64,000 bases of DNA. It comes from Alphaproteobacteria bacterium. Lineage in GTDB: Bacteria > Pseudomonadota > Alphaproteobacteria > Rs-D84. The notes beneath the pieces are model-generated. The model did not search any database. It saw only the letters and a list, made by a program, of their open reading frames with translations, and was not told the DNA's origin. Below are positions 14,666-49,657 of the stretch, piece by piece. The position numbers were made by a program, and so were the translations under genes. The stretch lies in NCBI GenBank assembly GCA_015062525.1, contig SUUM01000001.1, forward strand, positions 44,796 through 108,795, given 5' to 3'. Numbering within the stretch: position 1 is the stretch's first letter; every line of letters begins with the position of its first letter.

Positions 14666-15142
14666 GATAAATAAAAGTTTAGTTAAGATATTAATTTTTA
14701 GAAATTAAGCACCATTACCTGCCCCCGTCGGGCCCCGAAAAATTCAGATGAATTTTTTGGGTGACTTTGTGGGGCGGGACAGTTTTACTTGACCCGCCAT
14801 GCGGGGCTTTAGTAAAACTTGGGTGGGGGCAAATATGACAAAACATCGCATACGATAACACCAGAACAGAATACATAGAATCCCAGGGCTATAAACTAAT
14901 CCGTATTCCCAATACATATTTGACCCGCACAGGAATAGATGAAGTTGTTCATACTTTGCACAGGTGCATACAAGACAATCTGGATGTGCATAATTATTTT
15001 GTGTCTCGATATAACTAACACCCCCCACCCCGGAATTCCAACGCCAATAAATTGTCGGGAATTCCGCCCGCCCCACACACGGGGGGCAGGTAATGGTGTT
15101 TAATTTCTAAAAATTAATATCTCTGTTAAACTTTTATTTATC
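14666..15142 (+). mobile_element. Non-autonomous (200-bp internally deleted) copy of the DUF559 cassette
   Basis: Near-identical to 7580-8255 but lacks 7761-7960; both inverted-repeat arms intact. Confidence 0.85.
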
Positions 15143-15227
15143 GCAGTAACGATACATCAATTGCTCTTTTTATCTCGGCTGTGCTGTGCACAGACGGATG
15201 CACTTACACTAACCACTAAAAAATCCC
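15127..15227 (+). repeat. 101-bp direct repeat, copy 1 (copy 2 at 15623-15723)
   Basis: TAAACTTTTATTTATCGCAG...CACTAACCACTAAAAAATCCC; one mismatch between the copies. Confidence 0.9.
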
Positions 15228-15286
15228 CCAACCGGGGGATTTTGTTATTCCACTCCATACGAAGGGGGCGGAAAAATTAAAAACTA

Positions 15287-15598
15287 CCGTCATACCGGCG
15301 AAGGCCGGTATCCATTGTGTTCTGCAAACTTTATTATTTGCGCTATGAAACATTAGCCCCCGGCCTGCGCCGGGGTGACGGCTTTTCTTTTAGAAATTAA
15401 AAACCTTTGTCATTACCGCGCAGGCGGTAATAGGGACCACAAACCGCGCACAACGTGCGCCAAACTTAAACAGAATTTTTTTACAAAAAATTCTGTCATC
15501 CCGGTGCTTGACACCGGGACCCAGGTAATAGAATCCTTATTATTTGTGCGCATTTTATGCGCATAACCTAGGTTCCGGGGTCAAGCCCCGGAATGACA
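15287..15598. repeat. Cluster of (C/T)GTCA-tagged REP-like palindromes, partly in inverted pairs
   Basis: CGTCATACCGGCGAAGGCCGGTATCC ... CCCCGGCCTGCGCCGGGGTGACG; TGTCATTACCGCGCAGGCGGTAAT; TGTCATCCCGGTGCTTGACACCGGGACCCAGG ... CCTAGGTTCCGGGGTCAAGCCCCGGAATGACA. Confidence 0.8.
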
Positions 15599-15622
15599 AA
15601 AACGTAAAACGTTTTTGTTAAC

Positions 15623-15723
15623 TAAACTTTTATTTATCGCAGTAACGATACATTAATTGCTCTTTTTATCTCGGCTGTGCTGTGCACAGACGGATGCACT
15701 TACACTAACCACTAAAAAATCCC
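15623..15723 (+). repeat. 101-bp direct repeat, copy 2, including a solo element right end
   Basis: TTAACTAAACTTTTATTTATC (15618-15638) is the exact reverse complement of the first 21 nt of the left arm. Confidence 0.9.
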
Positions 15724-15799
15724 GCCATCCGGGCCCCGCGCAAACGAATGTTTGCGTGGGTGGACATCTGGCGGGATTTTTTGTCCTTCCATCATCTGT

Positions 15800-17245
15800 T
15801 TATTGGATACCGACGCGGAACTGGTCACCCCATCCGGCCACATTCTGACCGCCAATGGTACATTTTATATCTTCAAAGCCGTTTTCCACCTGATTCTTTT
15901 TTACAACATGGCTGGTTACCAATGCCCCCGTTGTTCCCAACACAACACCCGCAACAGTGTCAGATGCCAGGCGCGCCGTATTAAAATTACCTTCTGCATC
16001 TTTCCATACACTAACATTATCACGGAATTTGTTGTGTATTGCGGTCAATTGGCTGTATGCACTGTTAACTCGACCCGTTTGTTCACTGACGTCTATTGTT
16101 ATGTTGACATTACTATCATTGATACAGGTCGTATTAACAATCTGTTGTGTACTGTCATACAGACGCAGAAATACATCTCTGTCTGGCTGTCCCTTGCAGT
16201 ATGTTTCTAAATCTGCAATTTCCTTTAATGCATTTGCATGCTTGGTACATTTAGATTTCCAATCTGCCAATTTTGCCATCAGTTTCTCATCGCATTTATA
16301 CACGTCAACAGATTGGTTGCTTTCAACCTTACAAATCCATTGATTGTTATTTTCTTTAATGAATTTGCCACCATTAACACATTGACATGCCTGAGCTGTA
16401 CGGTCCCAAATTGTTTCGCTGGCGGGCTTTGCACAACAGGCCTTGCATATCTCGGATTGGCAGACCGACGGATGGCATTTACCTATATATCCATTGTTAT
16501 TAGAATTACATTTTCCGCATTTGCAATTCGCGCCATCTTTTTCGACACATTCAAACGTTTCATTATTTTTACAATCGGCTTGGGATATTATTTTTCCACT
16601 ACCCTGGGTACATTCTTTAGTTAGCTCTGGGTTTGGTTGCTGTCTGTCATCCACAATACACCTGCCTTCATCATCCACCCGCATTCTATCTTGGCATTTT
16701 GTTGCTTCGCAAATAAAAGTGGGGCCTTCACGACAAATCCCTTTGAATTCTATTGCGCTATTATCTGTCTTGGTATATCCACTACAATCAGTATAAGTTA
16801 AAATACGACATCCTCCGCTTGTGTTGCCGACGCATTCTCCAACAGATATTTCCCCAAACCCTTCTGTATGACAAATCCCATCGTTTACAACTTCCCAACT
16901 ATCCCCCGAGTCCACGTCGCATTGATATGTAACCTTTCTTCTGATAACCTCTCCCTTAAAAACGTGACCTGGTTGCATAGTGATAACATCATCTTTACTA
17001 CATCCGCCTGAAATGAAGTGGTCGCATTCATAGCCCTGTCCATCTCCGGAATTTTTCTTGCCAGAATTTGTATATCCACTCTTAGTAAGATTGAATTGAT
17101 CTTCTGTTTCATATAAAAACTCGTTATCATCTGGTTCTTGAATTTTACCAAAACTTAATGTTACAGGTGAATTACACGCTGTATATCCAGTATTTATAAC
17201 TAAAAAAGCAGCAATAAAACCGTATAAAAATCCAAATTTTTTCAT
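15800..17245 (-). CDS. Cys-rich secreted protein with C-terminal glycine-zipper-like segment
   Basis: 481 aa; signal peptide; many Cys; FNTARLASDTVAGVVLGTTGALVTS. Confidence 0.8.
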   Translation of the reverse strand: MKKFGFLYGFIAAFLVINTGYTACNSPVTLSFGKIQEPDDNEFLYETEDQFNLTKSGYTNSGKKNSGDGQGYECDHFISGGCSKDDVITMQPGHVFKGEVIRRKVTYQCDVDSGDSWEVVNDGICHTEGFGEISVGECVGNTSGGCRILTYTDCSGYTKTDNSAIEFKGICREGPTFICEATKCQDRMRVDDEGRCIVDDRQQPNPELTKECTQGSGKIISQADCKNNETFECVEKDGANCKCGKCNSNNNGYIGKCHPSVCQSEICKACCAKPASETIWDRTAQACQCVNGGKFIKENNNQWICKVESNQSVDVYKCDEKLMAKLADWKSKCTKHANALKEIADLETYCKGQPDRDVFLRLYDSTQQIVNTTCINDSNVNITIDVSEQTGRVNSAYSQLTAIHNKFRDNVSVWKDAEGNFNTARLASDTVAGVVLGTTGALVTSHVVKKNQVENGFEDIKCTIGGQNVAGWGDQFRVGIQ

Positions 17246-17441
17246 AAAGAATCTCCCTTAAAGCCTACCGAATCTAAACGACCGTTTGGATTCAGCAAAT
17301 TTTCCTATTCTGATTATTTATTATTTTATCATATTTTCAGCGTTATTCCAAGAATATTTTATTTCCCATTTTATATCATTTTTGTGCCGAAACCAAACAA
17401 CCGTTTGGGCTGGGCGATTACAAGAAAGATTGCCCATAAAC

Positions 17442-17465
17442 AAATCCCGCCAAATGGCGGGATTC
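17442..17465 (-). terminator. Terminator ending the rpsM-rpsK unit
   Basis: AATCCCGCC-AAAT-GGCGGGATT immediately after the rpsK stop. Confidence 0.75.
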
Positions 17466-17469
17466 TTTA

Positions 17470-17853
17470 TTACACGCGACGTACCTTCTTTGGACGACAC
17501 CCATTGTGTGGGATACGTGTAGTATCGGTAATGGACTGCACAACTAGACCGGCATTCGCCAATCCACGTACAGCAGATTCACGACCCTGACCAATACCAC
17601 GCATCAAAACATCAACTGTTTTCATACCCATTTCGGCGACTTTCTTACCAACTGCGTCTGCAACAATTGTTGCCGCATATGGTGTGGACTTTTTTGCGCC
17701 CTTAAAATTATTTGCCCCAGCGGTTGCCCATGTCAAAACGGCGCCAGACTGGTCTGTGATTGTAATACGTGTATTGTTGTTAGTCGCAACGACATGTGCA
17801 ATACCATGCGATACTTTCTTAACAACTTTTTTCTTAGCTTTTGTAACTGCCAT
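17470..17853 (-). CDS. rpsK: 30S ribosomal protein S11
   Basis: KKSTPYAA, GRESAVR, PHNGCRP. Confidence 0.97.
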   Translation of the reverse strand: MAVTKAKKKVVKKVSHGIAHVVATNNNTRITITDQSGAVLTWATAGANNFKGAKKSTPYAATIVADAVGKKVAEMGMKTVDVLMRGIGQGRESAVRGLANAGLVVQSITDTTRIPHNGCRPKKVRRV

Positions 17854-17913
17854 TTTATTTTAACCTTTTTTCGATGTCTTCAATTAACTATGGTGTTAAT
17901 CTCTACCTTATTA

Positions 17914-18018
17914 AAAAATTAAGATAATGTTATAAATGCGCCGTTGTTGGCGAACGAAGTGTACAAAAGCTACACGAGCGAGCCACCAACAAGCAGATAT
18001 GACATTAGATTAATTTTT
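17914..18018. repeat. Long palindromic element (RPE-like), copy 1
   Basis: About 105-nt hairpin with core GTGTACAAAAGCTACACGAG; homologous element at 34755-34862. Confidence 0.7.
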
Positions 18019-18394
18019 ATTTCCCTTTTGTTGCGGAACCGGCAACCACTACACGCTTACCCTTGCGCGTGCGTGCATTTGTCTGGGTACGCTGACCACG
18101 AACCGGCAAACGGTTACGATGGCGAATACCACGGTATGCCTTCAAATCCTGCAAACGTTTGATGTTCATTGTCACTTCGCGACGAACATCACCTTCTACT
18201 TTAAAGTTTTCTTCGATGTATTTCGAAATTTTAATAACATCCTCGTCTGTCAAATCTTTTGCGCGCAGACCGTCTTTTAATTTCAACGCCTTGACGATTT
18301 GTGCCGATTTTGCCGGCCCAATACCGTGAATATACTGCAACGCAATTTCAATACGTTTTTCAGTCGGAATGTTAACACCTGCTATACGTGCCAT
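18017..18394 (-). CDS. rpsM: 30S ribosomal protein S13
   Basis: [10 protein letters not shown]...YRGIRH...[16 protein letters not shown]. Confidence 0.98.
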
Positions 18395-18495
18395 TTTTCT
18401 TTTTCCTTTTTATTTAACTGCGGTTCCCCCAGTCCACCAGGTTCCCCGATACCCAAACCCACAGTTTCCCATGGGCTATTTTATTTTGCCGGATA

Positions 18496-18523
18496 ATTTT
18501 ATACAAAAACCGGCAAAAGTCAA
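18496..18523 (-). promoter_or_regulatory. Sigma70-like promoter for rpsM
   Basis: Minus strand TTGACT, 16-nt spacer, TAAAAT. Confidence 0.55.
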
Positions 18524-18542
18524 ATCTTGTTTTATTTCCACA

Positions 18543-19862
18543 TTAACCGCGGAAACGCCCCTTCTTTTGTGTTTTATTAATAACACCGCTGTATTGTTTC
18601 GCAACCAAGTACGATTGAACCTGATTAGTTGTATCCAAAACAACACCCGCCACAATCAACACGCTGGTACCACCAATTGCCAAAGGCATACCCAAATGCG
18701 TATTCAGAATAATTGGCAACACACAAACCACAATCAGATACGCAACACCAATTGCCGTCGTACGCGACACAACATTATCCAGATATTTGATTGTCTGTTC
18801 ACCTGGACGCACACCTGGCACATAGCCACCCGCGTTTTTCAGATTATTGCTGGTTTCTTCGGAATTGAATATAACCGCGGTCTGGAAATACGCAAAGAAT
18901 GCAATCAAAACCGTGAACAAGAATATATACGACCAGGTTCCATATGTAAAGAAACCTAAAATTGTCTGAACGGTCAAATTCTCACTTTGAACAAAACGCT
19001 GAACGAATGCAGGCAACATCATAATAGAAGATGCAAACACAGGCCCCATAACCCCCGACATATTAACCTTAATCGGCAGATATGACGCATTAGTATTCAC
19101 AACACCATTTGCCATAACCTGACGTGGGTACAGAATCTGAATACGACGCTGCGCCTGTTCAAAGAATGCAATCAATGCAACGATACCTACAACAAACGCC
19201 AGCACCAACGCAATCATCGCAGGTGAAATCTGACCGACTGAACCCAATGATATCAACTGGGCAATACCACCCGGCACCTCGGCAATAATACCAGCAAAGA
19301 TTAACAATGATGCGCCCTGCCCGATACCACGCGCTGTAATCTGTTCAGCCAACCACATGACGAACACAGTACCACCAACCAATGCGATAATTGCGGACAT
19401 TTCAAACGCAAAGCCTGGATTAACCACCGCGGCAACACCATTAACAGGCGCCATCGCTTCCAGTCCACGAATAACCGCCCACCCCTGAACAACCGCCAAC
19501 AAAACGGCCAAATAACGGGTATATTGGTTAATTTTTACGCGTCCTGATTCACCCTCTTTACGCAATTCCCCCAAAGACTTACTTGTTGCACTTAACAATT
19601 GCAACACGATAGATGCCGAAATGTACGGAAAGATGTTCAATGCCAACACAGACATACGCGACAATGAACCACCACTGAACATATCAAACATACCCATCAT
19701 TCCACTATTATCACCCTGAAAAAGGTGCAAAACCGCGGATGCATTAACACCCGGCAATGGAATGAACGACCCAATACGATAAACAACCAGCGCCCCCAAC
19801 GTAAACAGAATACGCTTCTGCAAATCGCTAAGATTACCGAAAAAGCCTTTTAAGAATTTCAT
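18543..19862 (-). CDS. secY: Preprotein translocase SecY
   Basis: YRIGSFIPLPG, PYISASI, GIGQGASLLIFAGI, PGVRPG, GGTSVLI. Confidence 0.98.
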   Translation of the reverse strand: MKFLKGFFGNLSDLQKRILFTLGALVVYRIGSFIPLPGVNASAVLHLFQGDNSGMMGMFDMFSGGSLSRMSVLALNIFPYISASIVLQLLSATSKSLGELRKEGESGRVKINQYTRYLAVLLAVVQGWAVIRGLEAMAPVNGVAAVVNPGFAFEMSAIIALVGGTVFVMWLAEQITARGIGQGASLLIFAGIIAEVPGGIAQLISLGSVGQISPAMIALVLAFVVGIVALIAFFEQAQRRIQILYPRQVMANGVVNTNASYLPIKVNMSGVMGPVFASSIMMLPAFVQRFVQSENLTVQTILGFFTYGTWSYIFLFTVLIAFFAYFQTAVIFNSEETSNNLKNAGGYVPGVRPGEQTIKYLDNVVSRTTAIGVAYLIVVCVLPIILNTHLGMPLAIGGTSVLIVAGVVLDTTNQVQSYLVAKQYSGVINKTQKKGRFRG

Positions 19863-19928
19863 GTGTATGAACTTTTAACCATTGATTGGCATCTGGACAC
19901 GCCAGATGCCAAATACAGATTCAGATTT

Positions 19929-20387
19929 TTAGTTATTTTTGATTGTGCCACCGGCCTTGACAATCGCTTCTTCTGCCGCTTTGGACCATTTATCCGCAAC
20001 AACATTAACAGCTGTCTTGATTTCACCCTTGGCCAAAACTTTCAAGCCATCCAATCTGCGATTGATAACCTTTGCCGCCATCAAAGAATCAATTGTGATT
20101 TCCTTGCCTGCATCAATTTTACCTGCCGCGATAAACTTTTCGATATCGCCCAGGTTAATTGTCGCATATTCCTTGGCAAAAGGATTGTTAAAGCCAAATT
20201 TTGGGAAACGACGCAAAATTGGCATCTGACCACCCTGGAAAGTCGCCTGCTTGCGTGAACCACTACGAGCTTTCTGCCCCTTATGACCACGACCAGCTGT
20301 CTTACCAGATCCAGACCCCATACCACGACCAACGCGGGTTGCGTTCTGACGTGCACCAAAATTATCCATCAATGCATTTAATTTCAT
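19929..20387 (-). CDS. rplO: 50S ribosomal protein L15
   Basis: RVGRGMGSGSGKTAGRGHKGQKAR. Confidence 0.97.
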   Translation of the reverse strand: MKLNALMDNFGARQNATRVGRGMGSGSGKTAGRGHKGQKARSGSRKQATFQGGQMPILRRFPKFGFNNPFAKEYATINLGDIEKFIAAGKIDAGKEITIDSLMAAKVINRRLDGLKVLAKGEIKTAVNVVADKWSKAAEEAIVKAGGTIKNN

Positions 20388-20464
20388 TTCTTTTACTCCT
20401 ATAACTACTATGTAGTTCTTTGTCGCACGTAAACAAGTCCTGTTTTCGTACTCGGTTTATCATT

Positions 20465-20641
20465 TTATTCAACTACTTCTACCAAGTGCGAAACCTTGGC
20501 AATCATGCCACGTACAGATTCAGAATCTGTGATTTCCTTGGTCTTGCCGATACGTCCCAGGCCCAACGCTTTCACGATTTTGACCTGTGCTTCTGGACGA
20601 CCGATTGTACTTTTAACTTGTTTTACAACTATCTTAGCCAT
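20465..20641 (-). CDS. rpmD: 50S ribosomal protein L30
   Basis: Manual translation MAKIVVKQVKSTIGRPEAQVKIVKALGLGRIG...VRGMIAKVSHLVEVVE (58 aa, below the ORF-track cutoff), between rpsE and rplO. Confidence 0.95.
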   Translation of the reverse strand: MAKIVVKQVKSTIGRPEAQVKIVKALGLGRIGKTKEITDSESVRGMIAKVSHLVEVVE

Positions 20642-20668
20642 AATTCAAACTCCTATCAATTGTCCAGA

Positions 20669-21223
20669 TTATTTTGCGTCATCCGCAGTTTCTAATTTTT
20701 TACCATCACGACCGGCAATGATTTCCGCAACTGTCTTGCCACGACGTGCAGCAACAGTTTTTGGCGAATTCATCTTGTTAAACGCCAAGAACGCAGCACG
20801 GATCATGTTGTTTGGATTATTAGAACCCTGAGATTTAACAACAACGTCCTGTACACCCAAGCATTCAAATACCGCACGCAACGCACCACCAGCGATGATA
20901 CCAGTACCTGGAACCGCACTACGTACAACCAGTTTGCTGGCGCCATATTTTGCTGTGCTATCATGATGCAATGTACGACCTTCCTTCAGCGGTACACGAA
21001 TCATTTTTGCTTTTGCCGCCTTGGTCGCCTTTTGCACCGCAGCCTGCACTTCCAACGCTTTACCTTTACCGAAACCTACGCGACCAGCTTTGTCCCCGAC
21101 AACAACCAACGCCGAGAAAGACATATTGCGACCGCCCTTTACAGTCTTAGATACGCGGTTGATAGAAACTAATTTATCAACCAAGTTATCTGTCTGCAAT
21201 TTTTTATCATCAAAACGTGCCAT
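20669..21223 (-). CDS. rpsE: 30S ribosomal protein S5
   Basis: [20 protein letters not shown]. Confidence 0.97.
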
Positions 21224-21246
21224 TATTATACTCCGTCTTATTCAAA

Positions 21247-21603
21247 TTAAATTCTTACGCCACCTGCGCGGATTGCTTCGCACAGTGCCTTAACACGACC
21301 ATGATAGCGATAACCGCCACGATCAAAATAACAATTGTCAGCAATTTTTGCCGCAACTACGCGTTCAGCAAATGCTTTGCCAACCAATTCGGCACCGGCA
21401 ACATTCCACCCTTTGCCTGCGAACGCCTTTTCTTTGGACGAAGCAGCACAGATTGTATGCCCTTTGGTGTCATCAATCGCCTGGATTTCAATATGACGAC
21501 CAGAACGGAAAACTGACAAACGAATCTTGCCAGGATTTTTTCTTTTCAACGCACCACGATTTGCCAGTGTACGTCTTTCTTCTGAATTCAAATGTTTCAA
21601 CAT
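21247..21603 (-). CDS. rplR: 50S ribosomal protein L18
   Basis: RLSVFRS, FDRGGYRYHGRVKAL; likely start MLKH. Confidence 0.95.
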   Translation of the reverse strand: MLKHLNSEERRTLANRGALKRKNPGKIRLSVFRSGRHIEIQAIDDTKGHTICAASSKEKAFAGKGWNVAGAELVGKAFAERVVAAKIADNCYFDRGGYRYHGRVKALCEAIRAGGVRI

Positions 21604-21655
21604 TTTCTTTTTCCTTTTTTCCGACATCCGTAACAGCGGACATCAAAGTTAACTA

Positions 21656-22207
21656 TTATTTCTTCTTACCTTCTTTGCGACGGATTCTTTCGCCCTTATA
21701 GAAGATACCTTTACCCTTGTATGGGTCCACCTTGCGAACTTTGTGAATCTTGTCCGCAAACTGCCCAACCAAACATTTATCCATACCCTTAACGGTAAAT
21801 TCTGTTGGTGCATCACCCATTACAACGGTCAAGCCCGCTGGAATGTCCATAACAACATCATGCGAATAACCCGCAACCAACACCAACTGATTACCCTTAA
21901 CAGATGCTTTATAACCAACACCCTTCATGTACATTGGCTTTTCAAAACCTTTGGAAACACCTTCGACCGCATTACGAATATTGCGTGCCATTGTGCCCCA
22001 CATTGTACGAGAAGACTTTTCATCTGCATCTTTTGGGTTAATAACAACCTGACCTTCTTCGATAACGATATCGACCAAGCCAGCATTTTTTGTATCCAAT
22101 GGCAATTTCAATTCGCCTTTTGGACCCTTAACTACCAAAGCGTTGTCCACAATCGCGACAGATACGCCTTCACTCAGTTTAACTGGATATTTTCCTGCAC
22201 GTGACAT
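21656..22207 (-). CDS. rplF: 50S ribosomal protein L6
   Basis: MSRAGKYPV, PYKGKGI, RRKEGKKK. Confidence 0.97.
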   Translation of the reverse strand: MSRAGKYPVKLSEGVSVAIVDNALVVKGPKGELKLPLDTKNAGLVDIVIEEGQVVINPKDADEKSSRTMWGTMARNIRNAVEGVSKGFEKPMYMKGVGYKASVKGNQLVLVAGYSHDVVMDIPAGLTVVMGDAPTEFTVKGMDKCLVGQFADKIHKVRKVDPYKGKGIFYKGERIRRKEGKKK

Positions 22208-22229
22208 AACTTAATCCTCGCTTTACTAA

Positions 22230-22628
22230 TTAGATAACCTTGCACAACACTTCACCACCGACATTCATCAAACGTGCCTTGTGGTCCGTCATAACACCAT
22301 TCGGTGTAGAAACGATTGCAATACCCAAACCATTTAACACCTTTGGCATTTTCGCACTGCCGGAATAAACACGGCGACCTGGCTTAGATACAACTGAAAT
22401 TTCTTGGATTGCACCATTTCCGCCAACATATTTCAATTCAACAACCAAATTTGAACGATGTTCATCGATTGCTTCAACGCGGAAATCAGTAATAAAACCT
22501 TCTTCTTTTAATACAGACAAAACAGCCTGACGCAGTTTGCTGTTTGGAACGACGATTGTTTCTTTACCTGCGTTCTGACCATTACGGATGCGGGTAACCA
22601 TATCGCCGATTGGGTGTGATAATGACAT
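22230..22628 (-). CDS. rpsH: 30S ribosomal protein S8
   Basis: DMVTRIRN, SKPGRRVY, GGEVLC. Confidence 0.97.
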   Translation of the reverse strand: MSLSHPIGDMVTRIRNGQNAGKETIVVPNSKLRQAVLSVLKEEGFITDFRVEAIDEHRSNLVVELKYVGGNGAIQEISVVSKPGRRVYSGSAKMPKVLNGLGIAIVSTPNGVMTDHKARLMNVGGEVLCKVI

Positions 22629-22715
22629 CTTTTACTCCTTACATGTGTGGGGAACCAGTCCCCCAACACCGTTTTCTTCTACCAACTGCATTGTCCACAG
22701 TTGTGCTTACTTATT

Positions 22716-23018
22716 TTACCAGCTGGACTTACGTACGCCCGGCAGCTTACCTTCACTAGCCATTGTACGAACCTGCTGACGACACAGACCGAACAAGCGC
22801 GAATAACCGCGGGAACGACCTGTTACACTGCAACGATTACGCAAACGTGTTGGGTTTGCATTACGTGGCAATTTTGCCAACTTTTTCATTGCATCAATTC
22901 TTTCTTCTGGTGTCGCATTAACAGACATTTTTGCCTTGATTGTTTCACGCTTTTTTGCATACTGCGCAACCAGCTTTTCACGTTTATGTTGTTTGTTAAT
23001 TAACGCTAATTTCGCCAT
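22716..23018 (-). CDS. rpsN: 30S ribosomal protein S14 (long form)
   Basis: [22 protein letters not shown]...PGVRKSSW. Confidence 0.97.
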
Positions 23019-23037
23019 CTTTTTTAACCTTTTTTAA

Positions 23038-23583
23038 TTATTTCAAAACCAATGGCAAGCCGATTTTAGTCAGCAATGCACGTGCTTCATCATCTGTTTT
23101 CGCCGTTGTTGCGATAACAATATCCATACCACGAATGGCATCGATTTTATCAACAGAAATTTCTGGGAAAATCAAATGTTCCTTGATACCGAACGCATAG
23201 TTCCCACGACCATCAAACTTAGATTTTGACAAACCGCGAAAGTCTTTTACACGTGGCAACGCAACGGTAATCAGTTTATCCAAGAAGTCATACATTCTTT
23301 TACCACGCAATGTAACCTTGGTACCAATTTCCTGGCCTTCACGCAGACGATATGTTGCGATAGACTTTTTCGCACGTGTCTTAATTGCCTTTTGTGCGGC
23401 AATCGCTGTCAAATCAGCAACCGCTGAATCCAGTTTCTTTTTATCAGATACTGCTTCACCAACGCCCATGTTCAAAACAATCTTTGTCAGTTTTGGAACC
23501 GCGAACGCATTCTTATACCCAAATTCTTTAATCAATTCAGGCACAATTTCTTTTTCATAAATTTCACGCAATCTGCTTTGCAT
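23038..23583 (-). CDS. rplE: 50S ribosomal protein L5
   Basis: [27 protein letters not shown]. Confidence 0.98.
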
Positions 23584-23638
23584 TTCTTTTTTCCTTTTGT
23601 TGTGTCCCCGTAACAGCGGGCAACAATTTTACCTGTTA

Positions 23639-23941
23639 TTATATCTGGGCACCAGATTTCTTTGCAACGCGAACTTTCTTGCCGTTTTCTACTTTGTATC
23701 CAACACGTGTTGCTTTTTTGGTTTTTGGATCAACCAATGCAACGTTGGAAACATGAACCGGCGCTTCGCGGTCAATAATATGACCTGGCTGTTCCTGCGT
23801 TGGCTTGATGTGCCATTTACGACGATTTACACCTTCGACAACAACACGTTCTTCTGCTGGGCGTGCTTCCAGTACTTTACCTTTGACGCCTTTGAATTTT
23901 CCCGAAATAACTACGACTTCGTCGCCTTTTTTAATTTTCAT
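23639..23941 (-). CDS. rplX: 50S ribosomal protein L24
   Basis: [27 protein letters not shown]. Confidence 0.97.
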
Positions 23942-23963
23942 TTTATGACCTTCCATCTGTTAT

Positions 23964-25053: not shown

Positions 25054-25108
25054 TTCTTGCTACCTTTTTTTGCCCTGCCCCGGGATTAGGTCCCGGGACT
25101 GCAATTAA

Positions 25109-40804: not shown

Positions 40805-40924
40805 ATTTTTTTCCTTTTTTATGCAAAATAAATATAATGTGCGTATATGCAAAATACAAATAAAAATATAAAAAAATTACATTGATTTTTATATTAAATG
40901 GTCGCATAATCTGCGCACGTATAT

Positions 40925-40990
<66 letters not shown>

Positions 40991-41001
<11 letters not shown>

Positions 41002-41400
41002 TAAAATTAAAACCACCTAAATGGTGGTTTTTGTTTTATGCCCAGGGTACAAGTTTGATACATCACATTGTTATACAATGTCTGGTTCGACAAGGAGTAG
41101 ATTTGATACGCCACGCGTAATCAAATCGTCACGACTGCCCCGCAGGTCTTGTCAAGACCAAGGGAATCTTGTTACTCCGACCATAAAATTAAAATCGGCC
41201 TTGCGCCGGTTTTTATTTTATGAACGGGGTACGGGGTCGATACCCCACATTGTAAAACAATGTAAGTTCGACAATGAGTAAACGAGAACAAGCCCTGCGC
41301 CGTTCGAGTGCTAACGAATGCCCCACAGCCGGTGTAAAACACCGTGCGAGGGAACCCCAAGACGAAGACCACAAATAAACAAACCGCCCATTCGGGCGGT
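40991..41400 (+). repeat. tRNA-linked tandem repeats (two degenerate units of about 180 bp)
   Basis: Exact 22-bp repeat TACTCCGACCATAAAATTAAAA at 40991-41012 and 41173-41194; both units share TTTTATG..GGGTAC..GATAC..CACATTGT..ACAATGT..GTTCGACAA.GAGTA. Confidence 0.75.
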
Positions 41401-41424
41401 ATTATTTTTAACGACAATATATCA

Positions 41425-42340
41425 TCAACGTTCTTTTGCCGCAGCCATCTCCATAATTTCTGACGGTATAGAACGTTCATCAAACACATCTAAAACCATC
41501 TGTAAATCTTCAGGATGAGCTTTTAAGTGACCTTCCATAATTTTTACAGCTGTTTCAAACGAAACACCTTTTTCACCGTTTATTATTTGCTGAAAATACC
41601 TTGCATTTTGACCTGACATATGTGAAATAATTTTACCAATCATATCTTTATTGACAAATTCTTGCATCTTTATATCAACAAGATTATTCTGTTGCCACAA
41701 AATCAATAATTTTTTTATATCATTTATTTTATTTTTTTTATCTTTTGACGCAGCAGAAATCGAAGTCACTGCTGCACAAATAACCATCACTAATCCAAAA
41801 TAAGCCCTTATACCCCTCAAATCCGAATTACTCAACGCAATATAAGATTCTTTCCGGAATAGATTAGCAAAATTATATGTTTCCAAAGTTGGATTCATAA
41901 TATATCTTGCAGTACCCAATGCCTTAGAACCTGTATTTTTTTCTGTTTTTTTTGCACCTTCAGAATCACTTACAGACAAAGCTACTTCAAAAAAATTAAT
42001 CCCCTTGTCGTCACCATACGCATTTTTTTCAGGTCCCACATGTCCCAACAACCATATTCCATACATCACACCCAAAAATAGAAGTTGTGTATTAACAAAA
42101 TTCTTTAACTCCATTTTCAAATTTTGAACCTTATCACCAAATTTTTGATAAAATTCTTCAACAACACGATTAAATTCTTGCTCCTGACGTTCCTGTTCTT
42201 TTTCAGCTTTAAGTCGTTTTTCTGCTTCAAGGAAAGCCTCACGTTCTTTTTTTGCTTTTTCCTCTGCCTTCACGCTTTGCTTGTTCTTGTTTTCGTGTAT
42301 CCCGCTCTGTAACCCCAGGAAACAATTTTTTATTTGCCAT
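41425..42340 (-). pseudogene. Membrane hypothetical protein with an apparent +1 frameshift near its 5' end (or a sequencing error)
   Basis: TAAGGAG SD plus ATG at 42340 gives MANKKLFPGVTERDTRKQEQAKRE and stops at 42239. The 282-aa ORF 41425..42273 continues AEEKAKKERE in another frame. Confidence 0.55.
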
Positions 42341-42359
42341 AATATAACTCCTTACATAA

Positions 42360-42582
42360 AATAACCGCTCCAAGAAAAAAGCGGTCGGGAAGTTCAAAAA
42401 TCATTTGTTCATTGATTCCGTGGCCTTTCAGGAATCCCTGTGTTTTATAACCAACAACCCCCCGACATAGCGTCAGGGACGATAACGGTGCAAAAAGACA
42501 CCGAAACATCATGCTTTAACGATGCTTTCGCACCGGAACAAATGGGCTTTTGACAACCCCGAACCCAATCTCTTGGACTCAG
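42360..42582 (-). ncRNA. Unclassified structured RNA or leader
   Basis: Extended -10 TGATATAAT at 42588-42596; multiple stems with GNRA loops and mostly minus-strand-specific G-U pairs; ends in a terminator-like hairpin. Confidence 0.55.
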
Positions 42583-42651
42583 TACAAATTATATCATATA
42601 AAAGACACAAAAAACAATAAAAAACCGCCATACGGCGGTTTTTTCTCTCTT

Positions 42652-43899
42652 TTATATTTTTTTCAGCACCAACGATGCATTTGTTCCACCAAAACCAAAA
42701 GAATTGCTGATTACAACATCAACCTTGCGTTTTTTTGCAACATGTGGCACCAGGTCAAAATCCCCCACCGCATCTTCTGGGTCATCCAAGTTAATTGTTG
42801 GTGGCACAATACCGTCGCGAATCGCCAACACACAGAATATCGCCTCGACCGCACCGGCCGCCCCCAACAAATGCCCCGTCATAGATTTTGTTGATGACAT
42901 ACAAACATCTGTCCCAGCAAACAAATCCTGCACCGCCGCCAATTCACCAACATCACCCAACCCAGTTGATGTACCGTGCGCATTAACATAGTCCACATCC
43001 GATGGTTTTAATCCCGCATCCGCCAGCGCAGACATCATTGCACGTTTACCACCCTCGCCATTTGGGGCGGGCGCCGTTATATGATACGCATCAGCCGACA
43101 TACCGTAACCTGCAACCTCGGCATAAATTTTTGCACCACGCGCAACGGCATGCTCGTATTCTTCCAGAACCAAGACACCGGCGCCTTCGGCCATAATAAA
43201 CCCATCACGATTTTTATCCCATGGACGCGATGCTGCCGCTGGATTATCATTACGCGTACTTAACGCTTTCATTGCCGAAAAACCAGCTAACGCAATACGA
43301 CTGACCGCACCTTCGGCACCACCACAAACCATAATATCTGCATCACCATATTGAATCATACGCGCCGCCTCGCCAATAGAATGCGCGCCGGTTGCACACG
43401 CCGTCACCACAGAAATATTTGGCCCCTTGAATCCATATTTAATGGAAATATTTCCCGCGGCCATATTAATAATCCCCTTGGGGATAAAGAACGGACTAAC
43501 GCGACGTGGTCCACCAGTATGCAATTCAATACAGTTATCATAGATTGTATTAAAACCACCAATACCACTGCCCACAGAAACACCTATGCGGGTTTTATCA
43601 CCTTCGTATGTATCCAACCCAGCATCTTTGATGGCTTCATCCGCCGCCACAATGCCATATATTTCACATTTATCCAGCTTGCGCTGTTCACGCGCGTCAA
43701 CGACACTGTCTGGATTATATTGCCCTGGTTCTGTTCCAACCTCTGGGACGCCTGCGATTTGCGATGCCAAATCTTCTACTTCAAAAGAATCGACTTTACG
43801 CACACCTGATTTACCCGCCAATATATTTTTCCATGCATGTTCAACCCCTGTTCCAACTGGGGACACAATACCCATACCTGTAATAACAACTCTTCTCAT
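42652..43899 (-). CDS. fabF: Beta-ketoacyl-ACP synthase II
   Basis: MRRVVITGMG, TACATG, NAHGTST, KSMTGHLLGAAG, NSFGFGGTN. Confidence 0.97.
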   Translation of the reverse strand: MRRVVITGMGIVSPVGTGVEHAWKNILAGKSGVRKVDSFEVEDLASQIAGVPEVGTEPGQYNPDSVVDAREQRKLDKCEIYGIVAADEAIKDAGLDTYEGDKTRIGVSVGSGIGGFNTIYDNCIELHTGGPRRVSPFFIPKGIINMAAGNISIKYGFKGPNISVVTACATGAHSIGEAARMIQYGDADIMVCGGAEGAVSRIALAGFSAMKALSTRNDNPAAASRPWDKNRDGFIMAEGAGVLVLEEYEHAVARGAKIYAEVAGYGMSADAYHITAPAPNGEGGKRAMMSALADAGLKPSDVDYVNAHGTSTGLGDVGELAAVQDLFAGTDVCMSSTKSMTGHLLGAAGAVEAIFCVLAIRDGIVPPTINLDDPEDAVGDFDLVPHVAKKRKVDVVISNSFGFGGTNASLVLKKI

Positions 43900-44024
43900 A
43901 ACATATATTCCTTTGGTATAACTAACATACGCCCATAATGATATACTGTTTAAGTAAAAAAAAACAATAAAAAAATCCGCCGACACAACTGCGCCGACGG
44001 AAAAAAACTTAACAAGAACAAATC

Positions 44025-44261
44025 TTAGTTTTTCTTATGTTCATCGATGTATTTAACAGCATCGCCAACTTTTTCCAATTTTGTTGCTGCATCATCTGGA
44101 ATTGTGATGTCAAATTCTTTTTCAACTTCCATAACAAATTCTACAACGTCCAGGGAATCAGCACCCAAGTCATTAACAAATGTCGCAGTTTCTGTAACTT
44201 TGTCTTCTGACACGCCCAGTTTTTCAACTACGATTTTCTTTACTTTTTCAAAAGTTGTCAT
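44025..44261 (-). CDS. acpP: Acyl carrier protein
   Basis: [11 protein letters not shown]. Confidence 0.97.
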
Positions 44262-44391
44262 TTCTTTTCCTTTGTTTTAGTTAAATTGTTTGGTCCATAC
44301 CACGACCGTCATTATATACTAAACTATCATTTTATAGAATACGTGTCAAGAAATTATAACAAACGATAACAAATACTTGACAAACACAAAA

Positions 44392-45399
44392 TTATATGCT
44401 TGGGGCGCATACATCATCCAACAACGAATTAATATTTGCACGCAAGTCCTCTTTATCAGATGCCCAAACCAAGCGACGCATCAAAAACTTATGCACATCA
44501 TCCATTGTTAAATTCGGAATACCGGCGGCCGCCACCACACGCCGCCATGCGGTACGCGGATCAATCAGGTGCATTCCACCACGCCCTGGAAACACCCAAT
44601 GCCCATCCTGGGGGAAATCCTGCAACAATACAATTGCCCTATCTGACAACGGACGCGAATTCCACATATCATGATTAAAATCTAAATCTTCCCATGCCAT
44701 AGCAAAGATTTTTGACCGTGGTGCAAAGCCATAAATCTGCATCAAAAACGCACCACGCAAAATAGTATCATCAACCTGATTAATCGCGCTTATCAAGCGT
44801 TGCAACCCCGCCTTATTCAGCGGGCGCACGCGCCGATTTTGTTTTATTTTTTCCAACCCCGCAACCGGATTAGATTTCACATACCCCATTTCCAGCGCAT
44901 AATTAAAAACACTTTGCAACAGTTCCTGCATACGTGCCGCGATCGCCACCCCACGAATATTTTGCACGCACGCGCACACATCATCAGATTTTATTTCTGA
45001 TATTTTTTTATCAAACAAACAACCCAGGTGCCGATTAATTGCACGCACTAATTTCATATGCGAATCTTCACCACGACGCACCTTGTTGGCCAGATATAAA
45101 TCCAAAAATTGTTTGAATGAAATTTTTTTTCTGCGCACAGGCGGTTTTTTTGATGCATTTTCCAGAATATGTGGCACCGCGCTGCGTGCATCTTCTATAT
45201 CAACATCGGGATATTTACCAATTAAAATCCGCTTGTCCTTGCCACGCACACGTTTGCGCACAAAAAACGTTTTCACCCCACGACTTGTGATATACATACG
45301 CAGTCTTGGTTCTGAAATATCCTGGACAACATCAAAACCCGTGCTTGGTGCCGGCAAGTTATCCAAAATATACGTATTAAAATAAAACTGGTGTGCCAT
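44392..45399 (-). CDS. Integrase-derived protein (Arm DNA-binding domain plus degenerate tyrosine recombinase domain)
   Basis: LRMYITSRGVKTFF...IGKYPDVDIEDAR (Arm-binding), SNPV, RVRPL, WEDLDF, WVFPG, AAGIPNL; HxxR and LGH...Y motifs are missing. Confidence 0.8.
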   Translation of the reverse strand: MAHQFYFNTYILDNLPAPSTGFDVVQDISEPRLRMYITSRGVKTFFVRKRVRGKDKRILIGKYPDVDIEDARSAVPHILENASKKPPVRRKKISFKQFLDLYLANKVRRGEDSHMKLVRAINRHLGCLFDKKISEIKSDDVCACVQNIRGVAIAARMQELLQSVFNYALEMGYVKSNPVAGLEKIKQNRRVRPLNKAGLQRLISAINQVDDTILRGAFLMQIYGFAPRSKIFAMAWEDLDFNHDMWNSRPLSDRAIVLLQDFPQDGHWVFPGRGGMHLIDPRTAWRRVVAAAGIPNLTMDDVHKFLMRRLVWASDKEDLRANINSLLDDVCAPSI

Positions 45400-45417
45400 C
45401 CTGGCCCTTTTTTGTTT

Positions 45418-45828
45418 TTATCTTACATTTGCAAACTTATTTGACCAATACTGCGAACAAAGCCTTTCATACTCATTGAATTTTTGCCTATTATCACAAT
45501 ATATATTATTTTCTTTACGCATCATACACCAATCATTTTGACATTTTTGCTCATTACCTTTTGGTCCAAAATACAAACAACGCCTAGCAGAAAAATGACA
45601 AATATCTTCAACAAACATTTCCATATTATCAGTCAACTGCTTACATTTAACACACGCACTACCACCCCTGATATCTTCACCTTTGTCATAATACTTTATT
45701 AAGCCAACGCCCGATTGAACCATATCTTTTTCTGCCTGATATAATGCTTTTTTCAATTTTATATACTCGCGCCAATCAACAACCAACTGAGCTATCGGTG
45801 TTTTTTTTACGTAATTAAACCATTCCAT
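45418..45828 (-). CDS. Hypothetical Cys-containing protein
   Basis: AT-rich ORF with AAGGA SD, directly after lepA. Confidence 0.65.
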   Translation of the reverse strand: MEWFNYVKKTPIAQLVVDWREYIKLKKALYQAEKDMVQSGVGLIKYYDKGEDIRGGSACVKCKQLTDNMEMFVEDICHFSARRCLYFGPKGNEQKCQNDWCMMRKENNIYCDNRQKFNEYERLCSQYWSNKFANVR

Positions 45829-45844
45829 AACCAATCCTTTTATT

Positions 45845-47638
45845 TCACGATACCTTTAACGCATTAATAAACGCACTTTGCGGAATTTCTACATTGCCGA
45901 ACGAACGCATACGCTTTTTACCCTCTTTCTGCTTTTCCAGCAACTTGCGCTTACGTGTAATATCCCCCCCATAGCATTTTGCAGTCACATCTTTGCGGTA
46001 TGCTGCGATTGTCTCTCTTGCTATAATCTTGCCACCAATTGCGGCCTGTAATGGAATTTTGAATTGATGACGTGGGATTAAATCCTTTAATTTTTCCACA
46101 ATCTGGCGTCCTCGTTTTTCTGCAAACGACCTATGACACATAAATGACAGCGGTTCAACATTTTCTTCGTTGACCAAGATATTAACTTTCACCAAATCAG
46201 ACGCTTGATACCCATACACAACATAGTCAAACGACGCATACCCAGATGAAATAGACTTTACCCGATCATAGAAATCAAACACAATTTCCGCCAATGGCAA
46301 TTGATACACCAACACCGCGCGATTACCAACATAAGATATGTTTTCTTGAACCCCACGACGTTCCGAACACAGGGCCATAATCCCCCCCATATATTTATCA
46401 GGCATCATAATCGTCGCACGCACCCAAGGTTCTTCGATTGCGGCGATTCGTGTTGGCTCTGGCATATCGGCTGGATTTTCTAAATCAATCACCGACCCAT
46501 CACGCATATGAATTTTATACAGCACGCTTGGCACCGTATTAATCAGATTCAGATTAAATTCACGCGCCAAACGTTCACTAATAATTTCCATATGCAGCAA
46601 CCCCAAAAACCCGCACCGCAGACCAAACCCCAACGCAGATGATTTTTCTACCGTGAACACAAAGGACGCATCATTCAACGCCAACTTTTCTGCACTTTCA
46701 CGGAATGTTGGATAATCGTCGGCCTCGACTGGAAAGAACGATGAAAACACCACCGGCACAGACGGTTTAAATCCAGGCAACATCTGCGCATTATCATACT
46801 TCGAATCGATAATAGTGTCCCCAACCTTGCAATCATGAATTGTCTTCATACCGGTAATAATAAATCCAATTTCCCCGGTATGCAGTTTATCAACATTAAC
46901 CATTTTTGGCGTAAAGTACCCAATCTTATCGACAACATATTCTGCGCCCGTTGCCATAAATTTAATTTTTTGACCGCGGGACAACGTGCCATCAACCACA
47001 CGTACTAAAACCACCACGCCCAAATAAGAATCGTACCAAGAATCAACCAACAGCGCACGCGTCGGTGCATTTTCATCCCCATGTGGTGCGGGCAATTTAT
47101 TAACAATTTCTTCCAGCAATTCCGGCACACCATCGCCGGTTTTACCCGACACAGCCAATGCATCCCCTGCATCCAACCCAATCACATCTGCAATTTGTTC
47201 ACGCGTACCCTCTACATCACTGGACGGCAAATCAATCTTGTTCAATACGGGCAACATTTCCAAATCATTATCCAATGCCAAATATGCATTTGCCAATGTC
47301 TGGGCCTGAACCCCCTGGGTTGCATCCACCAAAACCAACGCCCCTTCACACGCCGCCAACGACCGCGACACCTCGTATGAAAAGTCCACATGCCCCGGCG
47401 TATCCATCAGGTTTAATTGATACACCTCGCCATTTTTCGCCGTATAATTCAAACGCACGGTCTGGGCCTTGATTGTAATTCCGCGTTCACGTTCAATATC
47501 CATAGAATCCAGCACTTGTGCCTTCATCTCGCGCGATTGCAGACCACCTGTAAATTCAATCAATCGATCTGACAAAGTCGATTTACCATGATCAATATGT
47601 GCAACGATTGAAAAATTCCGGATATTAGATTGCTTCAT
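45845..47638 (-). CDS. lepA: Elongation factor 4 (LepA)
   Basis: [41 protein letters not shown]. Confidence 0.99.
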
Positions 47639-47647
47639 GTTATTACC

Positions 47648-48061
47648 AGTGGTTAGTGATTAGTGCAAGTGTTCAGTGAATGAATCAATCCAGATAACAT
47701 CCGCGACACTTCCGCTATATCTTTAAGTATTTTTTCTGCCTTGTTTTTTTCTACAAACCCCAAAGCAAACGCTAAATCTATCTGCGTTTCCAGCTCTGCG
47801 GCAGACCCTTTTGCCACATATACAAAACGCACATATTCCTTGGTTGTTCCCCGCGCGGCCCCTTCTGCCAAATTGGAACAAATTGACACAGCAGCCCTGC
47901 GCATTTGTGAAACCAACCCAAACTGCTCATTCTGTGGAAAGCAAGCCGTCGCCTTATATACATCAACGGCCAGATTAAACCCGCATTTATATACTGTTAA
48001 ATCCTTAACCGATTTCATGTATTCCATCACTAGCCACTAACAACTTACACTAACCACTAAA
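47648..48061. repeat. Inverted heptamer arrays (CACTAAC-type) flanking the four-helix-bundle gene
   Basis: AGTGGTTAGTGATTAGTGCAAGTGTTCAGTG (47648-47678) versus CACTAGCCACTAACAACTTACACTAACCACTA (48028-48059). Confidence 0.75.
47653..48027 (-). CDS. Four-helix-bundle protein (23S rRNA IVP / Avd-like family)
   Basis: KDLTVY...[27 protein letters not shown]...[13 protein letters not shown]. Confidence 0.92.
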
Positions 48062-48128
48062 TTGCCCTATGCGGCAATGATATACCAGTATTCCCGCATT
48101 CGCAAGGTGAATTTTTGCACAAAAACAA

Positions 48129-48479
48129 TTATTTCAAATTATTCAGCAATTCATCGATACGCGCGGCACGTTCCATTGTATCATCATATTGAAATTTAAT
48201 ATCAGGCACATATTTCTGATTCATGCGCGCGGCTAATTCAAACCGCACCATGCGCGTAATCGCGTCCAACCGCGCCTGCACCGCCGCCACATCCGGATTG
48301 CGTGTATAGAAATACAACCGCACGAATTGCAATCCCCCATGGGAATCTGCCCCCACCAACGACACCCCGGAAATCAGCGCATCATCACCATAATTATCGC
48401 GCAGAATTTCCGCCACCAGTGTTTGCACCTTACTTGCGACCCGTTCACCCCGATTTGAATTAAATTGTTTTTTTGGCAT
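48129..48479 (-). CDS. rbfA: Ribosome-binding factor A
   Basis: NRGERVA, KYVPDIKFQYDDTMERAARIDELL. Confidence 0.88.
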   Translation of the reverse strand: MPKKQFNSNRGERVASKVQTLVAEILRDNYGDDALISGVSLVGADSHGGLQFVRLYFYTRNPDVAAVQARLDAITRMVRFELAARMNQKYVPDIKFQYDDTMERAARIDELLNNLK

Positions 48480-48560
48480 GTATATTGTCTTTTTTTGTGT
48501 TATCATTGCTAAGATATAAGATATAAAAACACAATCAAGTAAATTTTTGTGGGGGCATAC

Positions 48561-49136
48561 ATGAAATTTTCAGAATACATATTGGCAAAATCAGAATCAC
48601 GCGCCTATTCATGGGTTGTATTTTTACTGACCATATGTGAATCCATATTTCTTTTCATCCCGCCCGAGGTTTTTATGACCCCACCCATCATCGCGAACAA
48701 GAAGCGCGCCCTTCCAATCACGGTTGCGGCGGCGCTGGGTTCAATTGTTGGTGGCATATTGGCATACATGATTGGCATGTGGCTGTACGATTCGGTTGGC
48801 ATTTGGCTGATTGAAACATTTTCGAATCCAGAATTAATCGAATCCACGGTCAAACCAATGTTTAGCAAATATGGCATTTGGATAATTGTACTTACCGCGG
48901 TCACCCCGATACCGTATAAATTGCTTGCGATATGGCTGGGGTTTATCGGCTATCCATTATGGATATTTATTGCAGTATCCGCAATATTCCGCACGGGCCG
49001 CTTTGCAATTGTGGGTTCCCTGCTCTATTTATTCCAGGAACGCGCAAACGCGATTGTCAAGAAATACTTCTGGCCATTAACAATCGGGGCAATCATCGCT
49101 GCCGGCCTGGGCATATGCCTGGTAAGTCTATTTTAA
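48561..49136 (+). CDS. YqaA/DedA (VTT domain) membrane protein
   Basis: ESIFLFIPPEV, GSIVGGILAY, TPIPYK, RTGRF. Confidence 0.88.
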   Translation: MKFSEYILAKSESRAYSWVVFLLTICESIFLFIPPEVFMTPPIIANKKRALPITVAAALGSIVGGILAYMIGMWLYDSVGIWLIETFSNPELIESTVKPMFSKYGIWIIVLTAVTPIPYKLLAIWLGFIGYPLWIFIAVSAIFRTGRFAIVGSLLYLFQERANAIVKKYFWPLTIGAIIAAGLGICLVSLF

Positions 49137-49180
49137 TCCCCTTCGCCCCGCGGGATTTTTTTCAAAGCACATATTACTCA

Positions 49181-49657
49181 GATAAATAAAAGTTTAGCAA
49201 AAATATTAATTTTTAGAAATTAAACACCATTACCTGCCCCCGTCGGGCCCCGAAAAATTCAGATGAATTTTTTGGGTGACTTTGTGGGGCGGGACAGTTT
49301 TACTTGACCCGCCATGCGGGGCTTTAGTAAAACTTGGGTGGGGGCAAATATGACAAAACATCGCATACGATAACATCAGAACAGAATACATAGAATCCCA
49401 GGGCTATAAACTAATCCGTATTCCCAATACATATTTGACCCGCACAGGAATAGATGAAGTTGTTCATACTTTGCACAGGTGCATACAAGACAATCTGGAT
49501 GTGCATAATTATTTTGTGTCTCGATATAACTAACACCCCCCACCCCGGAATTCCAACGCCAATAAATTGTCGGGAATTCCGCCCGCCCCACACACGGGGG
49601 GCAGGTAATGGTGCTTAATTTCTAAAAATTAATATCTCTGTTAAACTTTTATTTAGC
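49181..49657 (+). mobile_element. Second non-autonomous (200-bp deleted) copy of the DUF559 cassette
   Basis: Same deletion junction and diagnostic SNPs as 14666-15142. Confidence 0.85.

Follow-up and report, generated by a model that had tools for sequence, protein, structure and literature searches.

How does an element whose only gene has been destroyed come to stand at several unrelated places in one genome? The question is raised by a 64,000-nucleotide (nt) stretch of the genome of a gut alphaproteobacterium of the Rs-D84 lineage (GenBank GCA_015062525.1, contig SUUM01000001.1, positions 44,796 to 108,795), referred to below as the window. It carries a full-length inverted-repeat element of 676 bp (7580-8255, forward strand), which encodes a small nuclease of the DUF559 family, and two 477-bp copies, A (14666-15142) and B (49181-49657), also on the forward strand, that lack the same 200 nt of that gene. 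Across the genome, seven copies share this deletion junction. A single deletion followed by spread of the nuclease-dead subfamily in trans is the likely origin of these copies. We infer from sequence the single origin, the movement of the dead unit itself and an activity of the protein on these ends.

The shared deletion

The full copy extends from one terminal motif, J, to the other. J reads GATAAATAAAAGTTTA at the left end (7580-7595, forward strand) and TAAACTTTTATTTATC on the forward strand at the right end (8240-8255, where the motif itself lies on the reverse strand). The terminal arms, at 7580-7642 and 8193-8255, are 63 nt long and 92% complementary. Both deleted copies likewise run from J to J, and both lie where a first, sequence-only reading of the window had placed them. 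Their end-to-end alignment to the full copy opens a single 200-nt gap, in agreement with the common loss described there. The gap may be set at 7761-7960 or, equally validly, at 7753-7952, with CAAAACAT standing at both 7753-7760 and 7953-7960. These exact 8-bp direct repeats on the forward strand, the second exactly 200 nt after the first, form the left and right edges of the deletion and are the microhomologies between which that reading had placed it. A single CAAAACAT is retained at the junction of each deleted copy (14839-14846 in copy A, 49354-49361 in copy B). The loss removes residues ~5-71 of the protein, including the FRRQ, VDF and ELDG..H motifs, and shifts the frame, 200 not being divisible by 3; loss of the core and frameshift are thus both borne out. 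In translation, the deleted copies read ATG and six further codons before a stop, so that the frame of copy A ends after seven codons.

Another part of the sequence-only reading has to be revised. Copies A and B were said to share variants absent from the full copy, and these are absent only from the full copy of the window. Of the other full copies, C9 carries CCATGCGG and GGGCAAAT, C14 carries GGGCAAAT and TCCCAAT, and C7 carries TCCCAAT. These variants therefore do not mark the deletion lineage.

Copies across the genome

The genome (G000) is a 991,873-base draft in 15 contigs and is 97.6% complete. A BLAST census with the long copy, combined with alignment including 120-nt flanks, found four full copies, seven copies with the same junction, one truncated copy and two pieces at contig ends, as had been predicted from the three copies of the window. 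Six of the seven same-junction copies are complete and the other starts at a contig end. The truncated copy is interrupted at position 298 by another repeat. The two contig-end pieces are not typeable and are possibly the halves of one copy, which puts the total at 12-14 loci. All 14 element loci are intergenic.

The flanks of copies A and B have no similarity to each other. Among the flanks of the ten complete copies, matches consist of short dispersed repeat modules, the longest 220 nt at 79% identity and the others no more than 134 nt. Homology reaching far into the flanks, named beforehand as the sign of a segmental duplication, is not seen, the dispersed-repeat matches ending within ~220 nt. 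The arms are intact in all copies. The presence of at least seven copies with the same deletion suggests that the ends, and not the gene, get the element copied.

The deleted copies are 96.2-98.7% alike, and all six complete ones carry A133 and A165, as does full copy C9. Secondary deletions of 17, 11, 13 and ~10 nt fall in the gene remnant or at its edge and never in the arms; at the junction itself, the deleted copy at contig C8, 100456, is shorter by another ~10 nt. Arm-to-arm conversion is visible in four copies: in three deleted copies the right arm has been overwritten from the left, so that their arms measure 112 nt, and in full copy C7 the overwriting went the other way. The 127-residue frame is maintained in all four full copies, with that of C9 lacking its stop and reading on.

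Segmental duplication or an assembly artefact is hardly credible as an explanation of this pattern. The draft is broken into 15 contigs, with three or four of the copies at their ends, as an artefact might leave them, but the flanks of A and B are unrelated, and contigs of the public sequencing run X1 bridge both flank junctions of copy B. In the same run, word depth is 277-373 over the element versus ~36 over the flanks, about 8-10 times higher. X1 is possibly the source sample, so that it argues against mis-assembly and is not independent support. The public-run data consist of contigs only, which break at repeats and nowhere span a copy from end to end. In run X9, from a strain ~2% diverged, the left-flank contig leaves the window sequence 20 nt short of copy B and stops after another 14 nt, a hint that the strain differs at the copy B site. 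Run X8 has a contig with 12 nt unaligned beyond J, for which ordinary arm variants could account. Three apparent joints found in run contigs derive from other J-ended repeats. The related genome G043 was considered as an empty site for copy A and rejected: its orthologous spacer measures 276 nt versus 1235 nt here and is filled with other repeats, and gene identity is ~82%.

Two further observations concern the surroundings of the copies. The gene lies on the C-rich strand in six of seven copies within strongly GC-skewed regions; four of these are on one contig and the bias is not significant. Four copies adjoin paralogous sequence resembling a promoter followed by a structured leader (TATAAT...GGGGTGTAAGAACCCGTTA), at C8:5960-6180, C8:100240-100455, C9:107950-108186 and C14:28840-29055 (loci L135-L137 and L139). 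Two of the four share 79% identity along 220 nt, and none has an Rfam match.

The gene between the arms

The sole long frame of the full copy is P0001 (7749-8132, forward strand; 127 codons plus stop). It matches the Pfam family PF04480 (DUF559), of the Vsr fold and PD-(D/E)XK type, with an E-value of 4.5e-32 and 110.6 bits against a cut-off of 20.6; PF18741 falls below its cut-off and there is no further Pfam match. Residues 17-111 also match a solved "endonuclease-like protein" (PDB 3hrl, E 1.3e-20). FRRQ, VDF and ELDGxxH are conserved in six relatives within the genus. The ratio of nonsynonymous to synonymous substitution rates is 0.05-0.20 across the genus, wherever the synonymous rate is computable, which indicates at the sequence level that the gene is under purifying selection. 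A promoter scan of the element found no sigma-70-like site, and Rfam returned nothing above the gathering score for the element and five flank loci.

Known members of the same Pfam family include Vsr, VsrA and 3hrl. They are described as repair or homing enzymes, and none of them is described as standing in a multi-copy unit bounded by repeats. Caulobacter VsrA is a DUF559-domain endonuclease that, according to PMC12907096, causes an SOS response in vivo, and the DUF559/Vsr group contains a group I intron homing endonuclease (PMC3424549). An intron or intein homing endonuclease of Vsr-like type was considered for P0001 and set aside: all 14 loci are intergenic.

A second, distinct DUF559 gene lies at C9:6600-6908 (locus L138, 536-984), flanked by inverted repeats of 23 nt, ATTCCCCTCC...GGAGGGGTGG, a motif found also within one of the gene-less J-ended families described below. 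It may be that every DUF559 paralogue goes with a repeat of its own.

The inner arms

The element has two layers. GC-rich, structured inner arms flank the gene, and an AT-rich outer stretch on either side ends in J. The inner arms fold as single strands (z -4.2 on the left, for 7629-7748, and -3.45 on the right), whereas the outer AT-rich part is unstructured (z 0.17). In both arms a C-block, CCTGCCCCC, is followed by a loop, a G-block, GGGGCGGG, a hairpin loop and a second G-block, the C- and G-blocks forming an 8-bp stem. The left inner arm (7632-7744, forward strand) comprises CCTGCCCCC at 7632-7640, a hairpin insert of ~40 nt at ~7642-7681, GGGGCGGG at 7685-7692, the hairpin loop and then the second G-block, GGGTGGGGGC, at 7735-7744. 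The right inner arm (8135-8203, reverse strand) reads CCTGCCCCC, a loop of 6-7 nt, GGGGCGGG, an GGAATTCC hairpin and GGGGTGGGGGG; its fold consists of the 8-bp stem and a second hairpin, with the G-run unpaired.

This order of blocks is that of the BoxC/PIT/TMECO intrastrand-triplex repeats (Holder et al. 2015, PMC4666352), whose TMECO/BoxC consensus is a C-block, N3-6, a complementary G-block, N3 and a second G-block. Like the element, these repeats are intergenic, are often found as inverted pairs and are tied to local instability (PMC4666352). The arms of the element differ in an enlarged second loop, a hairpin of 33-44 nt versus 3 in the consensus, and in the 40-nt insert in the first loop of the left arm. 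Block order and hairpin folding make the arms BoxC/TMECO-like. The ~40-nt hairpin insert, GGGCCCCGAAAAATTCAGATGAATTTTTTGGGTGAC, recurs in G073 (locus L030), inside the loop of an unrelated hairpin, and has the look of a very small independent insertion module.

The association of such arms with DUF559 extends well beyond this genome. Among 80 distant DUF559 loci, the 58 with full flanks were compared with control windows: GC-rich inverted repeats of BoxC/TMECO type bracket the gene at 45 of the 58, and 116 control window pairs yielded none. The best-scoring arms at these distant loci closely match the published TMECO consensus. Within the genus, the same arm core occurs inverted on both sides of the gene at four of seven small DUF559 loci from relatives. 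The core motif is found in 7 of 61 genus genomes, six of which have DUF559, versus 18 of the 54 others. In the relative G004, a single DUF559 gene is accompanied by 29 arm cores. In G043, C5:20200-21106 (locus L028) holds gene-less tandem units of the left arm as well as a DUF559 unit whose first part is the inner arm, J and the AT-rich outer stretch both being absent. The two layers can thus separate.

The main text of PMC4666352 reports no mobility gene near the motifs, and the terms endonuclease, nuclease, DUF and Vsr are all absent from it. A literature search gave no paper uniting BoxC, intrastrand triplex and endonuclease among the matches listed, and none of the 25 papers found to name DUF559 in their full text does so in title or abstract. 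According to a table in PMC9881135, "DUF559 domain-containing protein" shows a 14-fold enrichment around predicted programmed inversions, which fits genes between inverted repeats. BoxC/PIT/TMECO repeats have been known since the 1990s and, to our knowledge, have no associated protein; DUF559, for its part, is a very common domain to which we know of no assigned role.

The outer ends

J occurs at 74 sites in the genome at up to one mismatch, and a reversed-pattern control gave none. A semi-conserved TTACTNN lies immediately outside it. The outermost 16-23 nt of the element are also the ends of at least four other repeat families, which lack a gene and have interiors unrelated to one another. 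Inward-facing J(+)...J(-) units number 23 and measure 118-675 bp; none of them is longer than the DUF559 unit, which alone is coding. By sequence, 19 classes can be told apart among the inner sides of J and 41, including 28 singletons, among the outer sides. J, with fewer classes on its inner side than on its outer side, therefore behaves as an element end. One outer module is joined via J to up to six different inner modules.

No target-site duplication is detected. Direct repeats of 2-8 nt at offsets 0-13 are not above shuffled partners in the 23 units, in a test that is blind to a fixed dinucleotide such as TA, which abuts only ~30 of the 74 ends. The proposal that the short copies move as miniature inverted-repeat transposable elements (MITEs) do is therefore upheld in their intact ends and not in this hallmark. 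J was also considered as an invertase-type site or as one of Xer/dif type, in which two inverted 11-bp arms enclose a 6-bp spacer, and rejected, only TAAA/TTTA being strictly symmetric; over the outer arm positions of J, 2.9 of 7 are symmetric, the same as in shuffled partners, and a separate dif-like site exists on contig C15. Searches for Y1_Tnp (PF01797), DDE_Tnp_1, rve, IS110 and DDE_3 found no match in the 97.6%-complete genome, which has eight tyrosine- and three serine-recombinase matches.

The age of J-ended repeats varies among genomes. In G000 the median identity to the nearest copy is 97.5%, or 97.1% when only the 51 non-DUF559 ends are counted; in G043 it is 95.7%. In G073 and G068, where no DUF559 was found, the medians are 88.0% and 84.6% and no repeat reaches 97%. 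Among the genomes examined, J-ended repeats are young only in those with a J-bounded DUF559 element and old where no DUF559 was found.

Next to copy A, a solo J (15623-15638) and a duplicate of the 95-nt flank of that copy make up 15623-15733 on the reverse strand, 496 nt downstream of the original at 15127-15237 and 95% identical to it. The two form a 111-nt direct duplication of the last nucleotides of the element plus flank, and ~385 nt inside the duplication are dense in hairpins of the NTS/SRM type (GTCAT.CCGG...CCGG.AT).

The element in other species

Element DNA in G043 and G077 is 96-99% identical to that of the window, whereas flanking housekeeping genes are 81-85% identical. On sequence comparison, this near-identity beside diverged flanks points to recent transfer of the element between species. 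The only complete DUF559 gene assembled in G043 has a premature stop. A different truncated derivative is common to the two species (locus L061 in G077, L063 in G043), joined at an GAATCCCA microhomology from a flank module to mid-gene. Phage records, plasmid records and viral contigs gave no match to the element, and a conserved 28-mer of the arm has no exact match in JGI metagenome contigs.

A mechanism and its rivals

The proposed mechanism starts from one slippage deletion between the two 8-bp direct repeats inside the 676-bp element, which would have founded the seven-copy nuclease-dead subfamily. This subfamily would have reached unrelated intergenic sites by means of a trans-acting function for which the arms suffice. 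The DUF559 nuclease of intact copies would make its cut at the structured ends or next to them and so start copying without target-site duplication, along a route that may be break-induced, homing-like or by way of a single-strand hairpin. The deleted copies, and perhaps other J-ended gene-less families, would be miniature dependants of the nuclease, as REPINs (described below) are of RAYT. The pairing of gene and arms, the DUF559 unit as the sole coding J-ended unit, the missing transposases and the contrast in age favour the nuclease as the enzyme. That the trans function comes from the intact copies is plausible, if a little short of an even chance; the single deletion with spread in trans and the nuclease as its agent, taken together, are the best explanation and about evenly poised between right and wrong. 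Identical junctions, unrelated flanks and intact arms thus sustain the earlier proposal of a once-only deletion copied in trans, while its casting of the full copy as autonomous parent is less secure.

Several findings weigh against this explanation. The deletion junction was not found by exact match in G043, G077 or JGI metagenome contigs, and neither an empty site nor an excision product nor polymorphism is cleanly seen in the G043 spacer or the public-run contigs. With an 8-bp direct repeat at its edges, the same deletion could arise more than once, and the copies evidently convert one another. Similarity among all ten complete copies in G000 stops at J and not at the inner arms, and other J-ended families lack BoxC/TMECO-like arms; across lineages, it is the inner arms that are the conserved partner of the gene. 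The contrast between young and old J-ended repeats sets two genomes against two and is possibly a single phylogenetic contrast. Characterised DUF559 relatives, as described in PMC3424549 and PMC12907096, are repair-type or damage-causing nucleases. Presence of J and of DUF559 is also not associated: DUF559 occurs in 4 of the 10 genomes with at least four J sites, leaving six of these J-rich relatives with no match, and in 20 of the other 51. DUF559 is not a known transposase, nor is it known for transposase or homing activity.

Much of this would be accommodated if the mobile unit were the J-ended module, moved by an outside factor such as a site-specific recombinase or a lost transposase, with DUF559 and its arms as nested selfish cargo and the "full" copy no more autonomous than a deleted one. 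The sharp stop of similarity at J and the independence of J from DUF559 would follow, as would the ends shared by gene-less families and their fewer inner than outer classes. G043 supplies a DUF559 unit from the inner arm without J along with gene-less inner-arm units; the 7:4 ratio of deleted to full copies is that expected if the gene is irrelevant to spread; and the recombinase matches offer candidates. Yet none of the J-bounded units has a recombinase gene in it or next to it, J is no more symmetric beyond TAAA/TTTA than shuffled partners are, and the restriction of young J-ended families to the two examined genomes with a J-bounded DUF559 element would be unexplained. We regard this account as possible but doubtful. 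Less probable is that the dead unit never moved, full copies having dispersed first and the deletion having then spread by gene conversion or recurred by replication slippage, perhaps favoured because an active nuclease is costly. The exact direct repeats at the deletion edges suit recurrence, conversion is evident in the overwritten arms, and markers 133 and 165, near the deletion, would co-convert with it. All seven junctions are identical, however, while other inactivating lesions are absent from the four full copies; the six complete deleted copies share one flanking haplotype; and their later divergence by different secondary deletions fits an older single lineage. We consider it rather improbable, and somewhat more so, that no dedicated enzyme is involved and that J and the modular repeats are short homology anchors for general recombination, perhaps fed by DNA acquired from relatives, in the manner proposed for neisserial dRS3/NIME mosaics. 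Combinatorial joints, the lack of a detected target-site duplication and near-identical element DNA across species would all suit such shuffling, and dRS3 repeats may act as recombination homology (PMC11893778). Against it, 28 of 74 outer flanks are unique, leaving many sites with no outside homology beyond ~23 nt, and the greater repetitiveness of inner over outer sides is left unexplained.

Relation to known systems

The deleted copies resemble MITEs in their small size, in their intact terminal inverted repeats (arms of 63-112 nt) and in an internal deletion that kills coding. Deleted copies outnumber full ones, positions are intergenic and several families share one end sequence, as with MITEs. 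Classical MITEs differ in having a target-site duplication, and the full member here encodes a Vsr-fold nuclease and not a known transposase.

A second likeness is to the repetitive extragenic palindromes (REPs), their REPIN units and the associated RAYT gene, in which a single small gene likewise stands between inverted structured repeats that multiply without it, as the 29 cores and one gene of G004 may illustrate. REP/REPIN-RAYT systems use a Y1 (HUH) enzyme, whose family PF01797 is unmatched here, and simple REP hairpins in place of three-block BoxC/TMECO-like motifs.

A further counterpart in layout is Ssn (Chenal et al. 2025, PMC11893778), a ~100-residue single-domain nuclease whose gene stands, as here, between inverted hairpin repeats scattered over the genome. 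The DUF559 element shares the defining arrangement of Ssn and its repeat, SRM, in that its gene is bracketed by inverted copies of a dispersed repeat. Ssn differs in its fold, GIY-YIG versus PD-(D/E)XK here, and as reported in PMC11893778 it cuts its repeat and modulates transformation; mobilisation is not what was shown there. The present genome has four small GIY-YIG genes of its own (C9:121454-121675, C9:73367-73588, C9:44788-44991 and C15:105778-105993), located elsewhere and with a different hairpin. The first two each lie between inverted hairpins, which at C9:121454 resemble the Neisseria NTS motif. Judged from these genes and hairpins, the genome carries a second nuclease-plus-repeat system, of the Ssn kind.

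In neisserial dRS3/NIME mosaics, a short conserved motif joins many modules combinatorially, like J. J lacks a palindrome like that of dRS3 and is not known as a target of phage integrases.

Other features of the window

Between 51205 and 57439, families of tandem and dispersed direct repeats with periods of 21, 66 and ~180-490 nt lie inside long reverse-strand frames, which probably encode repeat-rich surface proteins. An Rfam match to Alpha_RBS at 18362-18467, in a ribosomal-protein region, is barely above threshold, and a tRNA-Pro(CGG) gene lies at 40925-41001.

Implications

With the gene destroyed in seven copies, the arms intact and the sites unrelated, the deleted subfamily is a natural experiment that separates what is needed in cis from a possible action in trans. 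It also offers a simple testable system, in which the ends are defined, the substrate is 477 bp long and the protein has 127 residues. Near-identical elements in species 15-19% apart in their genes indicate that such units move between genomes, even ~1-Mb ones without recognisable transposases. A broader and tentative idea, which we think unlikely though worth stating, is that DUF559 proteins are the missing partner enzymes of BoxC/PIT/TMECO-type repeats, making the two together widespread nuclease-driven selfish elements. If so, this class would copy itself without a transposase or target-site duplication and would recently have crossed species borders. The 477-bp subfamily, and possibly all J-ended families, would then be the class's own miniature dependants in this genome.

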